Positions 23,416 through 26,286 of a stretch of DNA of 26,286 bases are shown here, in pieces. The translations under genes were made by a program, and so were the position numbers. Source of the DNA: Bacteroidaceae bacterium (GTDB lineage Bacteria > Bacteroidota > Bacteroidia > Bacteroidales > Bacteroidaceae). The notes beneath the pieces were generated by a model that was given only the letters and a program-made list of their open reading frames with translations, was not told where the DNA came from and searched no databases. Position 1 is the stretch's first letter. The number at the start of each line of letters is the position of its first letter. The stretch covers positions 1-26,286 of the forward strand of contig JAQWAN010000001.1 of the NCBI GenBank assembly GCA_028707655.1, written 5' to 3'.

Positions 23416-23568
23416 TTTCTCTTTTCTTTTTATCTACTATTTATCTTTTCTCAAAAGTAAAATATATATTTATACAATAAAATGAATATGTTATTCAAAA
23501 AATAAATGGTAGTATTTTGATCAAAACATAGATGGTTTTGCTCCCAATAAACAGGTATATTTGTAACA

Positions 23569-23606
23569 AAACGGTGCTGTATTTTGTATAAAATACAGCA
23601 CCGTTT
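23569..23606. repeat. Perfect 17-bp inverted repeat (hairpin)
   Basis: AAACGGTGCTGTATTTT (23569-23585), loop GTAT, AAAATACAGCACCGTTT (23590-23606). Confidence 0.9.
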
Positions 23607-23762
23607 GAATGGAAAACTATCTCTATTTTGAAAAATCGAAAAAAGTGGTTAAAAAAGAGGTAAATATAGGTGTGTTTCTTGGCATTTTAACTTTTGCAGA
23701 AAAACGAAAATTGAATAAGGAGAGAGAACTATTTGCATGCTTATGCAGATGAGCTTACTTTT

Positions 23763-24171
23763 TTAGATAAAGAGCTTAAATACCGCTTACAATTCATTAA
23801 ATCTCCCAGCAAGATTAACTATAAATAACAGTAAAGGTTACGCACAAAATCACTACCTTTATAGTGCAGATGGAGCAAAACTACAAGTTAATAAAGTTTG
23901 GAGTAGTGCCATGAGAGAACAAACAGACTATGTAGGCAATATGATTTACGAAAACAATGCTTTGAAACGCATCCTTGTTGATGGTGGTTATATAGAAGAT
24001 GGAGCGTATTACTTCTATGAGACTTTTACGACTGCCACTCAAAGTTTAAAAAATGTAAGTGTAACAGTCTCCCGTAGTTTAGCTGCTCCTGTAAATGCAA
24101 CTCGTTTGCCTGCTTTTAACTTTTTTCTCAACGGAACAAGACGCAGTTTTTTCAATTCTTTTAATAAATAG
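23763..24171 (+). pseudogene. Rhs/YD-repeat toxin gene remnant: Rhs core fragment joined in frame to a 50-aa foreign C-terminal tail
   Basis: The frame from 23767 reads AYNSLNLPARL..YLYSADGAKL..TDYVGNMIYENNALKRILVDGGYI..YYFY, typical Bacteroidota Rhs core. It has no start, there is an upstream in-frame stop (23764) and frameshifted LDK, and the expected DH.G and DPxG motifs are missing. Confidence 0.8.
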
Positions 24172-24179
24172 TAATGATT

Positions 24180-24710
24180 ATGAAAAAAAAGTTGTTATTT
24201 GCAGCAATAATTGGTCTAGTCCTCCATTTCAATATGTTTGCCCAAAAAGGATATGCTGAAAAAATAAATCAGTTGAATGAAAAAGGGCAAAAGGTGGGTT
24301 TGTGGAAAGAAAATAGAAATAAGTATGAACGGACTGAAATATATTACCACAATGGAAAGAAAAATGGTTTGTATAGAGTGTTAAATATTACAAATGGTGA
24401 ACTTTATTTTTTTGGTGAATATAAAAACGATACGATTATTGGTACTTGTTATTTTTTCGGAGATTTTGGGCATTTATCAATGATTCAGAAAGATTTTAAG
24501 AAAAATAACAAGAGAATTCCTATTAAAGGAGTACAGGGTATTCTGCCATATCAATGTTATTGTATCACTTACCATCCAAATGGTATAAAAGAATCAGAGG
24601 GAATTTTGTTATGGAGCGAAGACTCCGACGGTGAATTTACTTTTGAATATGGCGAATGGAAATATTACACTGACACAGGAGTGTTGACAAAAACAAAAAT
24701 ATTCAAATAA
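24180..24710 (+). CDS. Exported MORN-variant/YwqK-like repeat protein, putative immunity protein (alternative start 24174)
   Basis: Signal peptide, INQLNEKGQKVGLW, YHNGKKNG, YHPNGIKESEG and GEWKYYTDTG repeats. It starts within 10 nt of the Rhs-remnant stop. Confidence 0.7.
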   Translation: MKKKLLFAAIIGLVLHFNMFAQKGYAEKINQLNEKGQKVGLWKENRNKYERTEIYYHNGKKNGLYRVLNITNGELYFFGEYKNDTIIGTCYFFGDFGHLSMIQKDFKKNNKRIPIKGVQGILPYQCYCITYHPNGIKESEGILLWSEDSDGEFTFEYGEWKYYTDTGVLTKTKIFK

Positions 24711-24714
24711 CCTA

Positions 24715-24752
24715 AACAGCCCCGTACAGAAAACTGTCGGGACTGTTCTTTT
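24715..24752 (+). terminator. Hairpin/terminator after the immunity-like gene
   Basis: Imperfect stem AACAGCCCCG-t-ACAG / CTGTCGGGACTGTT with loop AAAA, followed by CTTTT. Confidence 0.6.
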
Positions 24753-24785
24753 GTATTCCCCCGAGCAAGTACCCCTTTTCTTTCC

Positions 24786-24827
24786 AAAAAAAATCTCTAT
24801 AGCCAATTTTTAGAGTTATAGAGATTT
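24786..24827 (-). terminator. Intrinsic terminator of the integrase gene
   Basis: Stem AAATCTCTATA / TATAGAGATTT. On the minus strand it is followed by a run of 8 T, about 85 nt after the integrase stop. Confidence 0.7.
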
Positions 24828-24912
24828 CTATTTTCCATTGTGTAAAGTTATACTTTTTACACTTAACTCAATGTCCGGCTAAAGTTAGCTATTCCAAAGG
24901 AAAAATATAGTT

Positions 24913-25974
24913 TTACAAATTATCCAACGGACTTTTAATTTGAGATTTAGAAATATCGGTAATGTGGGTATAAACTTGGGTGGTTTTTATAGAATTATGA
25001 CCTAATAATTCTTTGATAAAACGAATGTCTGCACCACTTTCAATGAGGTGGGTGGCATAACTATGGCGTAAACTATGAATACCGATAGTTTTATTGATTT
25101 TTGCCTTTTTCATTGCGTTTTTGAATACAGCCTGAGCACTTCTAACAGAATACTGTCCGCCGTATTGTCCCTCAAAAAGCCACTCTTTGGGTTGGTAAAG
25201 TTTGTAATACGCTCGCATAGGCTCTAAAACAGATATTGGCAAATTTACATATCGGTCTTTTTTGCCTTTCGCTCCTCTGATAAGAACTCGCATATTATCG
25301 CTATCAATATCTTCTATTCGGATATTTACAATTTCGCTGACACGAAGCCCCATTCCATAGCATAATTGTAAAACCAAAAGATGTTTGGGGTTGGTAGTTG
25401 CTTTTAGCAATTTTCTTACTTCACTCTTGCTTAATACTTTAGGAAGCAAGAGTGCTTTTTTAGGACGAGGAATATCAAAAAACATTTTAGGCTGATGTAG
25501 CACTTGTTCAAAATAGAATTTTATAGCATTTATTTTGGAATTCATTGTGGCTTCTTTGGCTTTGTGTTGTTCAAGACAATACAGAAAATAATCTTTGAGT
25601 CTTTCAGGTGTTAGCGTATCAACAGGTATGTTTTTTAGTAATTTCAATAATTGCTCAAACTCGTTTACATAAAGCCTTATGGTATTTTTGCTATACGCTT
25701 TTAGGTTGAGTGTACTAATATAATTTTGTAGTGCAATTTGGTTTTGTGGACAAATGGCACTGGTGATTTTCTCCTTTTTGGGTGGAAGATGTAATGCTTT
25801 TCTGACAGCAGGTAAATCAGGTAAATACCACGCTTTATGAGTTTGACTCCATTTTGCAGAAGGAAAATGATTTTTTAGGGCATTTTTCAAGGCGACAGTG
25901 TAATAAAAACGTATCCAAATGACTTCTTTTTCGTAATATTCCCCAAATGAGAACTGATATAATGATAAATCCAT
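24913..25974 (-). CDS. Tyrosine recombinase, integron-integrase-like but lacking the IntI-specific insertion, with an extra N-terminal domain
   Basis: Intact catalytic set GLRVSE (R), AKGKKDR (K), HSLRHS (HxxR), LLGH (H) and TQVYTH (Y). It has IntI-like LPKVLS and terminal SPLDNL motifs, and a SAM-like N-domain (YSKNTIRLY). Confidence 0.92.
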   Translation of the reverse strand: MDLSLYQFSFGEYYEKEVIWIRFYYTVALKNALKNHFPSAKWSQTHKAWYLPDLPAVRKALHLPPKKEKITSAICPQNQIALQNYISTLNLKAYSKNTIRLYVNEFEQLLKLLKNIPVDTLTPERLKDYFLYCLEQHKAKEATMNSKINAIKFYFEQVLHQPKMFFDIPRPKKALLLPKVLSKSEVRKLLKATTNPKHLLVLQLCYGMGLRVSEIVNIRIEDIDSDNMRVLIRGAKGKKDRYVNLPISVLEPMRAYYKLYQPKEWLFEGQYGGQYSVRSAQAVFKNAMKKAKINKTIGIHSLRHSYATHLIESGADIRFIKELLGHNSIKTTQVYTHITDISKSQIKSPLDNL

Positions 25975-26126
25975 AAATTGCGTATTTTGTGTTATCTAAT
26001 TTACACAAAGGTGATATAATAACATATAATACGCAAGTGATTAATACAAAATGCGTAAGTAATATTTTTAAGCAACACGCTATTATATATACTTTTATCG
26101 CCTTATATATATTCTTTGAGGTAGAT

Positions 26127-26158
26127 TTTGATAATTTCAAAAAACTTGCGTATATTTG
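26127..26158 (+). promoter_or_regulatory. Consensus Bacteroidota promoter driving the downstream gene(s) (Pc-like)
   Basis: TTTG (26127-26130), 20-nt spacer, TATATTTG (26151-26158). Confidence 0.8.
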
Positions 26159-26168
26159 TGTGTTGTAC
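26150..26168 (+). other. Putative attI-like recombination site
   Basis: GTTGTAC (26162-26168), a relaxed GTTRRRY core, preceded by a 5-bp spacer and a degenerate inverted box GTATATT. It lies between the divergent integrase and aadS. The assignment is inferred from position. Confidence 0.45.
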
Positions 26169-26194
26169 GACATAGTAAAACCGAACCAAACAAA

Positions 26195-26286
26195 ATGAAA
26201 GTCAGAGAAGAAAAGTTAAGAACAATTATAGAATGGTCGGAGAAAAACGAAGATGTAAGAGTTCTTCTTCTGACAAGTTCACTTGT
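26195..26286 (+). CDS. aadS: Aminoglycoside 6-adenylyltransferase (streptomycin resistance), 3'-truncated by the window end
   Basis: The ATG at 26195 translates to MKVREEKLRTIIEWSEKNEDVRVLLLTSSL(V), which I recognise as the N-terminus of Bacteroides AadS (ANT(6) family). Not in the ORF track. Confidence 0.9.
   Translation, partial: MKVREEKLRTIIEWSEKNEDVRVLLLTSSL

Follow-up and report, generated by a model that had tools for sequence, protein, structure and literature searches.

The window analyzed here is a stretch of 26,286 nt from a Bacteroidaceae bacterium (assembly GCA_028707655.1, contig JAQWAN010000001.1, forward strand). Near its end lies a gene for a tyrosine recombinase, hereafter the integrase, and divergent from it we found an attI-like site, an outward promoter-like sequence and the start of a cassette carrying the streptomycin-resistance gene aadS (Table 1). 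The window itself shows only attI and 124 nt of this one cassette; the genome bin contained no contig overlapping the window's end and no second attI. The cassette arrays and palindromic sites described below are those of relatives.

Table 1. Features at the integrase end of the window, with strand and supporting observations.
Feature	Position	Strand	Description
Integrase gene (P0001)	24913..25974	minus	353-aa ORF with translation; IntI/XerA-like tyrosine recombinase without the IntI insertion
Catalytic domain	24958..25440	minus	Residues 179-339, Pfam PF00589; R211, K236, H300, R303, H326, Y335
Flagged segment L245-W265 and the two IntI insertion points	25168..25242	minus	Translation, IntI alignment, split 2a3v and TIGR02249 matches
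Core-binding (SAM-like) domain	25492..25731	minus	Residues 82-161, Pfam PF13495; four helices in the model
Extra N-terminal domain	25759..25974	minus	Residues 1-72; predicted strand-strand-helix-strand-strand-helix; no known family
Three TTGCGTAT-type boxes	25978..26058	.	Between attI and the integrase start; positions 25978(+), 26029(-), 26051(-)
Outward promoter-like site, Bacteroidota type	26127..26158	plus	TTTG, 20 nt, TATATTTG; read directly from the sequence
attI-like site	26145..26168	.	Conserved block ending ...TATATTTGTGT, then GTTGTAC; crossover placed between G26162 and T26163
First cassette, aadS start	26163..26286	plus	First 124 nt, ATG at 26195; contig ends inside

The architecture of the protein is shown directly. 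A Pfam search returned Phage_integrase (3.5e-40) and Phage_int_SAM_4, and all six catalytic residues listed in Table 1 are invariant or near-invariant in 67 homologues. Among NCBIfam models the top match was XerA_Arch (208.2 bits, cut-off 220), followed by TIGR02249 (193.7 bits, cut-off 265); the scores against the XerC (179.7, cut-off 335), XerD (173.8, cut-off 330) and NF011946 (128.1, cut-off 435) models were likewise below threshold. A fold search with Foldseek, based on an AF2 model with a pLDDT of 86.8, gave XerA (5hxy) as the closest match and VchIntIA (2a3v) as another of the best. By sequence, the top PDB match was the VchIntIA chain 2a3v (2.2e-38), to the end of which the integrase C-terminus aligns. 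The motif LPKVLS is found at residues 177-182 and SPLDNL at the C-terminus. The N-terminal domain was predicted with high confidence in an alignment-based model (pLDDT 92-97 for residues 1-72) and is kept across members of the clade described below, while being missing from shorter relatives that adjoin the same aadS cassette. It had no Pfam match, to HARP or any other family, at E<=10 and fell only into unnamed Bacteroidota clusters in the Atlas. A fold search with this domain gave nothing above Z 3.9, the query being a low-confidence single-sequence model (pLDDT 61).

The most conspicuous departure from canonical integron integrases lies within the catalytic domain. Positions 25180-25242 of the window, read on the minus strand, translate to LPISVLEPMRAYYKLYQPKEW, that is, residues L245-W265. 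In a MAFFT alignment, the interval between the arginine of the KDR motif and the histidine of HxLRH measures 58 residues in the integrase and 36 relatives versus 100 residues in 15 of 15 canonical IntI, a comparison set that took in IntI1 and 11 IntI encoded by other genomes within the phylum; the host genome's own two Xer proteins have 64-65. The 42 extra residues of canonical IntI fall in two blocks, of about 27 residues after the position of Q261 (25192-25194) and about 14 after that of E268 (25171-25173). Consistently, the match to VchIntIA 2a3v is split in two, leaving chain residues ~214-248 unmatched, and the TIGR02249 match covers only profile positions 4-179 and 242-315, with 180-241 unmatched. 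The segment of IntI that contains helix I2 is absent from the integrase, and because its absence is read directly from the sequence, the question of chance does not arise. A preliminary description of the locus had claimed that the IntI-specific insertion is lacking, that all catalytic residues are present and that LPKVLS and the C-terminal SPLDNL are IntI-like; all three claims held. The LF of the peptide it quoted is encoded at 25174-25179, just beyond the stretch 25180-25242 that it had named, and its estimate of roughly 35 residues for the IntI insertion held only in part, the alignment giving somewhat more. The profile scoring that it had proposed left the protein below the cut-off for IntI and for all Xer models.

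We then placed the integrase among its homologues. In a tree rooted on the host genome's own Xer proteins, the insert-less family formed one clade (SH-aLRT 94) adjoining the canonical IntI clade (99). Canonical IntI were taken from a genome search with TIGR02249, as a search for homologues of IntI1 gave only IntI1-like proteins of >=74% identity, too narrow a set. The tree is the product of a quick search with an outgroup of only two long-branched sequences; it does not settle whether the family is sister to IntI, nor whether its members lost the insertion or never had it. Matches to the integrase were found in 9 of 401 sampled genomes of the phylum at E<=1e-90 and in 8 of 41 relatives at E<=1e-60. 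The plasmid collection held no close relative, the best match having 41% identity (Chryseobacterium oryzae). Public annotations name the relatives 'XerD' or 'site-specific integrase'. In 7 of 10 clade-member loci examined, no phage or conjugation genes surrounded the integrase; the exceptions were two F. columnare loci with insertion sequence (IS) and DUF772 genes and one Epilithonimonas locus with a CTnDOT-type integrase. Insertion sequences occur within some arrays, namely IS110 in locus L014 and IS3-type and DUF772 genes in L015. Around homologues of 51-57% identity (L031, L032, L033 and L035) we found no attI or attC-like sites, and we therefore do not extend the function proposed below to the whole superfamily.

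Upstream of the integrase, the attI block, which on the integrase strand reads nnnnAAC and then AC..AAATATACG, is located 84-191 nt from the integrase start in the measured loci (L013, L014, L015, L034 and L036) and is likewise present in L011, L016, L040, L055 and L058. Promoters of Bacteroidetes follow the consensus TTTG/TAnnTTTG. The -7 box of the promoter-like site forms part of the conserved attI block, and because of this overlap the conservation of the block may be partly transcriptional. Besides the three boxes of Table 1, another TTGCGTAT-type box is found within attI itself (26146-26153, plus strand), and similar boxes occur in L011 and L034. It is possible that they serve as accessory or autoregulatory binding sites for the integrase, a function that is inferred only.

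The 30 aadS codons present in the window match PF04439 positions 1-29, and full-length aadS from relatives scored 518.6 bits against the AadS model NF033387 (cut-off 450). The same 1030-bp cassette turned up in 67 places, where 40 different sequence contexts precede it and 28 follow it. It always starts with G|TTGTAC and ends with CACG|TT, and every copy diverges from its neighbors exactly at the position of the attI-like site, the GTTGTAC at its 5' end being matched by GTACAAC in its own attC-like site. In one copy TTGTAC is preceded by A rather than G, and the cut can accordingly be assigned to the step from G to TT. Hosts of the identical cassette include Segatella, Bacteroides, Phocaeicola, Parabacteroides, Riemerella, Myroides, Capnocytophaga, Empedobacter and Sphingobacterium, among others, and the cassette directly adjoins integrases of this superfamily in at least 5 different lineages. 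In Myroides loci with an interrupted aadS site, a group II intron was considered, and this remained unsupported as an Rfam search gave no family.

Natural variation was also observed at attI itself. A clean 795-bp cassette at attI, bordered by GCTAAC, is all that separates two F. columnare genomes. Similarly, metagenome contigs from three other studies carry a near-identical integrase and attI followed by different sequences, diverging at positions 26162-26167 of the window, with the foreign sequence starting at 26164-26167. In a Logan contig from what is probably the source run, another sequence follows this attI; the joint between attI and aadS in the window is therefore that of one subpopulation or, with less likelihood, a product of assembly.

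In eight loci from eight genomes, next to integrase homologues of 63-87% identity, we found series of co-oriented genes divergent from the integrase. These arrays consist of one- or two-gene cassettes separated by imperfect palindromes of 122-190 nt. Such attC-like sites were called by an arm-duplex scan; an earlier full-MFE scan (DNA parameters, -18 kcal/mol) had missed most of them, and a looser arm-duplex threshold (-10) introduced weak false sites that break chains. Across the 74.6 kb of array-side sequence in the eight loci, the scan yielded 43 sites (2-8 per locus), all 43 with the same polarity relative to the integrase. No site with that geometry was found on the opposite strand of the array side, and the 67.7 kb downstream contained none on the forward strand and one on the reverse strand. 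For 36 of the 41 adjacent pairs, reverse-complementing the 4 nt that follow GTT gives exactly the 4 nt preceding the next AAC or attI. The core GTTnnnn and the inverse core nnnnAAC are complementary within a cassette, although the bases do not strictly follow RRRY/RYYY.

Covariation was seen in 14 of 17 stem pairs, and 96% of stem cells were paired versus 77% in shuffles and 32-46% when partners were slid; these figures are drawn from related, non-independent sites. The arms of the bottom strand were more stable than those of the top strand in 27 of 28 sites, by a modest margin of about 2.7 kcal/mol on the arms. Where one strand has conserved G.T pairs, the other has A.C mismatches. In 18 of 20 aligned sites the first 17 pairs of the stem run without interruption, and no bulge or extrahelical base is conserved in the stems. 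The lack of a conserved extrahelical base matches the absence of I2, a correspondence inferred from sequence alone.

Taken together, these observations indicate that the product of the gene likely serves as the integrase of a gene-capture platform of integron-like type in Bacteroidota, a variant of the integron, although recombination is inferred here and not shown. The platform is likely widespread within the phylum, with a patchy distribution. The evidence is comparative only: no recombination, binding or circular intermediate has been observed. The preliminary description had left cassette mobilization conditional, and the context now strongly supports it through the arrays, the one-cassette difference between strains, the spread of aadS and the alternative cassettes at attI. 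It had further suggested that the integrase would have to rely on a different substrate recognition or on double-stranded sites; of these, the observations agree better with a folded strand that is recognized in a different way, because G.T wobbles are conserved on one strand, attI and attC-like sites share only about YAAC, and extrahelical bases are lacking. This mechanism is inferred without biochemistry.

The proposed mechanism, including catalysis by the integrase, exchange of a single strand and the roles of the spacer and N-terminal domain, is an inference from comparative sequence. The integrase, divergent from an attI that carries an outward promoter, would insert and excise promoterless cassettes, each ending in one of the attC-like palindromes. 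Its most likely partner would be the folded bottom strand of the palindrome, as in classical integrons. Read in order, this strand would present nnnnAAC, an unpaired spacer of 4-5 nt starting with G, a stem of 17-20 bp, a loop, the returning stem, 1-2 nt and GTTnnnn, and a single strand would be exchanged at G|TT. The predicted hairpins offer no extrahelical bases, and the integrase lacks the I2 helix that would read such bases. What sets the choice of strand may instead be the asymmetric spacer together with the G.T wobbles confined to one strand, with the ordinary core-binding and catalytic domains doing the reading. The N-terminal domain of this clade probably plays an accessory part and may bind the TTGCGTAT boxes close to attI; shorter relatives without this domain adjoin the same cassette.

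We considered three alternative explanations. The one that survives best, although we regard it as unlikely, is that the integrase moves cassettes by double-strand site-specific recombination, with two exchanges as in Xer or Cre, acting on duplex palindromes and needing no I2. In its favor, the core is Xer-sized, the XerA, XerC and XerD models score nearly as the IntI model does, and a long near-perfect palindrome without extrahelical bases could be bound as a duplex. Against it, attI and the attC-like sites have only about YAAC in common at the junction, the four bases beyond being cassette-specific, and there is therefore no shared overlap of 6-8 bp for two staggered exchanges. Moreover, G.T pairs conserved on one strand would be meaningless in a duplex, and neither the preference for the bottom strand in 27 of 28 sites nor the single polarity of all 43 sites relative to the integrase favors this reading.

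A second alternative, which we consider very unlikely, holds that the cassettes are, or once were, moved by another enzyme or that the platform is a frozen relic, the integrase being a bystander or serving another purpose, for example inverting DNA locally or integrating an element. The absence of activity data, the IS in the arrays of L014 and L015 and the CTnDOT-type integrase adjoining the Epilithonimonas locus speak for it. On the other hand, no canonical IntI above the TIGR02249 cut-off was found in four array-bearing genomes (the host genome, G000; G038; T. todarodis; P. aestuarii), in each of which the top IntI-like match is the array-adjacent gene. The integrase shows no disruption and retains 60-87% conservation between families, differences between strains and populations fall exactly at its attI, and the aadS cassette directly adjoins superfamily integrases in multiple lineages, as described above. 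Finally, an ordinary Xer of chromosome dimer resolution or a phage or ICE integrase with unrelated neighbors, as the 'XerD' and 'site-specific integrase' annotations and the substantial XerC and XerD model scores might suggest, is all but excluded by scores below every Xer cut-off, by the two separate Xer-type genes already present in the genome, by the patchy occurrence, by the lack of phage or conjugation genes in 7 of 10 clade-member loci examined, by the presence of arrays and attI, and by complete genomes that rule out the arrays as assembly artefacts. Grouping with ordinary XerD or ICE integrases lacking cassette-like neighbors, which the preliminary description had named as the outcome that would refute it, was thus not found; the phylogeny it had proposed gave a single insert-less clade next to canonical IntI.

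The reading as an integron-like platform can be set against known systems. Like integrons, such as that of the class 1 integrase IntI1 and the chromosomal integron of Vibrio cholerae (VchIntIA), it has a divergently oriented integrase, an outward promoter at attI, and cassettes that lack promoters and end in imperfect palindromes. Complementary GTTnnnn and nnnnAAC cores within a cassette, a crossover at G|TT and a bias toward the bottom strand are also shared, as are cassettes common to different integrase lineages and a cargo that includes resistance and defence genes. The SPLD-type C-terminus is that of IntI, and a G after AAC, noted for integron attC (PMC2727003), is present here too. Unlike IntI, the integrase lacks the 42-residue segment with helix I2 and bears an extra N-terminal domain of 72 residues; unlike integron attC, the sites lack conserved extrahelical bases and have an asymmetric unpaired spacer (4-5 vs 1-2 nt) and a long uninterrupted stem. 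The two-domain core of about 280 residues without insertion resembles archaeal XerA and bacterial XerC and XerD. In contrast to Xer proteins, the integrase is not universal in its lineage, has an N-terminal extension and adjoins attI and cassette arrays, a context from which action at a dif site seems improbable.

In the literature searched, we found no description of this platform. The IntI-specific insertion is cited as a hallmark in reviews and in a paper on archaeal integrons, and is used by IntegronFinder to call integrases (PMC9024848, PMC8138268, 10.1101/2022.02.06.479319), and IntegronFinder 2.0 reported only lone integrases and one Salinibacter integron in this phylum (PMC9024848). 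Loci of Flavobacteriaceae and Chryseobacterium have been reported with 'xerD' next to tet(X14), tet(X3)/tet(X5), catB and aadS (PMC7473080, PMC11194056). In Empedobacter and Chryseobacterium, a divergent 'xerD' lies directly upstream of the resistance gene; the authors recognized no known mobile element there and raised the question of mobilization by XerD, and attI, attC-like sites and cassettes are undescribed in both reports (PMC7473080, PMC11194056). These loci resemble ours in that aadS lies beside XerD-type recombinases, and it is no more than possible that the reported xerD genes belong to the clade described here.

A bolder reading, toward which we lean with reservation, is that Bacteroidota own a large integron lineage whose integrases recombine folded single-stranded attC hairpins without I2 or extrahelical bases. 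In this reading, the platform, invisible to IntI-based detection, would already be moving clinically relevant resistance genes (aadS and possibly the tet(X) and catB neighbors of 'xerD') among gut, animal-pathogen and environmental Bacteroidota. Integron biology treats the IntI insertion as defining and necessary, yet here an active-looking platform lacks both the insertion and the extrahelical bases, which makes the question of how a tyrosine recombinase chooses one folded strand testable. If true, the additional domain of IntI would be one among two or more ways of choosing a strand and not a requirement of integron chemistry. The finding further suggests that integron-like elements have gone unnoticed by surveys across an entire phylum, and it would explain the occurrence of aadS, and perhaps of other 'xerD'-adjacent resistance genes, in many unrelated Bacteroidota genomes without a recognized mobile element.

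The recombinase keeps all six catalytic residues (R211, K236, H300, R303, H326 and Y335, conserved among 67 homologues) and lacks the insertion typical of canonical integron integrases (IntI); both had been claimed in a preliminary description and both held. The closest solved structure by sequence, the Vibrio cholerae integron integrase 2a3v, was matched in two pieces with chain residues ~214-248 skipped, and the IntI profile TIGR02249 was matched at positions 4-179 and 242-315 only. In a joint alignment, the distance from the KDR arginine to the HxLRH histidine was 58 residues in the window's protein and 36 relatives (59 in two relatives), 100 residues in 15 canonical IntI (IntI1-like ones and 11 taken from further genomes of this phylum) and 64-65 residues in the two Xer proteins of the window's own genome. 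By alignment, the IntI insertion comprises 42 residues split over two blocks. The split matches and the shorter spacing therefore indicate that the insertion is truly absent.

Features of the integrase and its surroundings in the window
Feature	Position	Strand	Basis or remark
Integrase ORF, 353 aa	24913-25974	minus	translation
Segment L245-W265, LPISVLEPMRAYYKLYQPKEW	25180-25242	minus	translation
LF finishing the peptide quoted in the preliminary description	25174-25179		
SAM-like core-binding domain	residues 82-161		Pfam
Phage-integrase catalytic domain	residues 179-339		Pfam
Promoter-like boxes: TTTG, 20 nt, TATATTTG	26127-26158	plus	oriented into cassettes
GTTGTAC following attI	26162		
aadS start	26195		
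Segment between uracil-permease-like gene and integrase stop	23416-24912		31-36% GC
178-aa ORF within that segment	24174-24710	plus	convergent with integrase
Weak hairpin-scan match	~24099-24300		single; probably chance

The preliminary description had also proposed scoring the protein against IntI and other HMMs and building a phylogeny. All curated NCBIfam cut-offs were missed: XerA_Arch ranked first (208 bits, cut-off 220), followed by TIGR02249 (194 bits, cut-off 265), XerC (180 bits, cut-off 335) and XerD (174 bits, cut-off 330). The best fold matches of a predicted structure (alignment-based AlphaFold model, pLDDT 86.8) were XerA and VchIntIA. With a threshold of E<=1e-30, an exhaustive profile search returned 2981 cluster representatives. 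The top 150 were all collinear with the integrase core; the insertion was absent from all 27 aligned representatives and N-terminal extensions were variable. A quick maximum-likelihood tree, with the two Xer proteins as root, placed canonical IntI in one clade (SH-aLRT 99) and the insert-less proteins, the window's included, in a neighbouring one (SH-aLRT 94). Since the outgroup was small and long-branched, we claim no direction, i.e. whether the insertion was lost or never gained. The gene was detected in 8 of 41 relatives (E<=1e-60) and, in a phylum-wide sample of 401 genomes, in 9 (E<=1e-90), and copies from different families are 60-87% identical despite this patchy occurrence; in the genomes sampled, it is accessory. 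Full-length canonical IntI (TIGR02249 over cut-off, 100-residue KDR-HxLRH spacing) was observed in 113 of these 401 genomes, nearly all outside the window's class.

In complete or long assemblies, homologues 63-87% identical to the window's protein have upstream of them, in divergent orientation, a run of mostly unannotated genes that all point the same way. Such arrays were found in Tenacibaculum todarodis, Paenimyroides aestuarii, Flavobacterium columnare, Psychroserpens, Empedobacter brevis, Chryseobacterium sp. FH1, a Flavobacteriaceae MAG (87% identity) and one further relative (G038), and in most of them the 3' end of the integrase is followed by a housekeeping gene. Nothing exceeded the TIGR02249 cut-off in the window's genome, G038, T. 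todarodis or P. aestuarii, and the best IntI-like match in each was the array-adjacent gene. Cassette cargo included defence-type genes (SMODS+SLATT, Shedu SduA_C, AAA_21+DUF4435, a methyltransferase cassette and HEPN) and immunity-type proteins (Imm33-like and SMI1_KNR4). The integrases of two Epilithonimonas loci (L038 and L039) and of Chryseobacterium sp. FH1 (L058) front the same glycogen gene cluster, a shared position that suggests, no more than that, a sedentary and vertically kept platform; on the array side, Epilithonimonas carries a CTnDOT-type integrase and a same-strand block of small genes instead of cassettes. Homologues below about 57% identity lie in other contexts. Two of them (L032 and L035, 56% identity) had no attI or attC-like sites, so the protein family is put to another use at these loci; there, a co-oriented ORF resembling a single-strand-binding protein lies upstream and overlaps the integrase start.

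Array genes are separated by imperfect palindromes of 122-190 nt; in the arrays of loci L013-L058 these come in two sizes, 122-127 nt and 175-190 nt. On the integrase-sense strand, the bottom one with respect to the cassette genes, each site runs nnnnAAC, G plus 3-4 unpaired bases, a 17-20-bp stem, a variable loop, the second stem half, 1-2 unpaired bases and GTTnnnn. A scan for such arm duplexes detected 43 sites over 74.6 kb of array side and no site of this geometry on the arrays' opposite strand; the 67.7 kb lying downstream of the integrases contained none either, apart from one on the reverse strand. For 36 of the 41 pairs of adjacent sites, the four bases that follow GTT are exactly reverse-complementary to the four that precede the next AAC or attI (chance expectation 1/256 per pair), as would be the case if every cassette had once been circular, with a complete site. 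Insertion sequences (IS110 family or IS3-type) inside two arrays (L014 3603-4658; L015 384-1564) break this chain. Folding is supported by an alignment of 20 sites drawn from six genomes: compensatory changes occur at 14 of the 17 stem pairs, and 96.3% of cells are paired, versus 77.2% in shuffles (0/500 reach it) and 32-46% with slid partners. At three positions the bottom strand has a conserved G.T pair that would be an A.C mismatch on the top strand, and in 27 of 28 sites the arms are more stable on the bottom strand (-15.7 vs -13.0 kcal/mol). No conserved single-base bulge was found in the stems of the sites examined.

A conserved attI (nnnnAAC, then AC..AAATATACG) is present in the window and ten relatives' loci; where measured, it precedes the integrase start by 84-191 nt. 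At the junction it has only about YAAC in common with the attC-like sites, the flanking four bases being cassette-specific; there is therefore no shared overlap of 6-8 bp for two staggered exchanges, which argues, by inference, for single-strand exchange as in integrons. The promoter-like boxes closely resemble the Bacteroidota consensus, and the conserved part of attI is their -7 box, which would place the start of transcription at about the crossover point. Any function of the TTGCGTAT boxes is inference only.

Evidence of movement came from two F. columnare genomes that differ at attI by a single clean unit of 795 bp (a pentapeptide-repeat gene together with its site) with GCTAAC at its bounds; they are identical over 5916 nt to one side of it and, to the other, through the integrase. 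The window's own first cassette begins with the start of aadS, and the full gene in relatives is assigned to AadS (NCBIfam, 518.6 bits, cut-off 450). Among species-representative genomes, an exact 42-nt probe from it matched 66 stretches from Flavobacteriales, Bacteroidales, Sphingobacteriales, Chitinophagales and Cytophagales, including human-gut Bacteroidales and animal pathogens. All 67 copies therein are the same from TTGTAC on and unrelated before (40 distinct upstream contexts among 63); one copy has A, not G, before TTGTAC, placing the exchange between G and TT. The cassette, whose own site starts GTACAAC, measures 1030 bp in 41 of 42 measurable copies and ends CACG/TT (the slash marking the boundary), with 28 distinct downstream contexts among 39. 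It directly adjoins members of the integrase's own clade in Epilithonimonas bovis and Amniculibacterium, and also shorter insert-less integrases (283-311 aa) without the N-terminal domain; this extra domain is therefore not needed for this site. In three Myroides loci (L080, L108 and L110) and in L109, the aadS site breaks off right after GTACAA; the unrelated sequence beyond is common to the three Myroides loci and matches no Rfam family.

Near-identical integrase sequences occur in landfill, anaerobic-digester and wastewater metagenomes. Integrase-bearing contigs of three studies follow the window to 26164-26167 and then continue into three different sequences, while aadS-bearing contigs begin at 26162 with three other upstream sequences and 2.6- to 14-fold higher depth. 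Variant joints and the depth jump explain why the window's contig ends 124 nt into aadS. The attI-aadS joint is thus one of several population variants in assembled contigs, each joint being only as good as its assembly.

The literature treats the IntI insertion as essential (PMC8138268; 10.1101/2022.02.06.479319), and almost no integrons have been reported in Bacteroidetes (PMC9024848). Resistance papers record a divergent 'xerD' next to tet(X14), aadS and catB with the mechanism unrecognised (PMC7473080, PMC11194056), and no description of this platform was found in the literature searched. In canonical attC sites, strand choice is directed by two or three extrahelical bases of the R''-L'' arm (PMC2727003). 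The VchIntIA structure shows helix I2 touching such bases. The platform described here lacks the bases and the helix together. The preliminary description had reasoned that the integrase, if it mobilises cassettes without the insertion, would need another substrate-recognition route or double-stranded sites; the joint absence of extrahelical bases and helix I2 offers the most economical reading of that puzzle, inferred as it is from sequence alone. A single-strand mechanism, roles for the spacer and wobble pairs, and the function of the N-terminal domain are all inferences; no catalysis has been shown. In every feature testable here the platform resembles an integron, except that it does not pass two defining tests, those for the IntI insertion and for extrahelical bases. 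With that reservation about catalysis, it is likely to be an integron variant whose integrase lies outside the IntI family.
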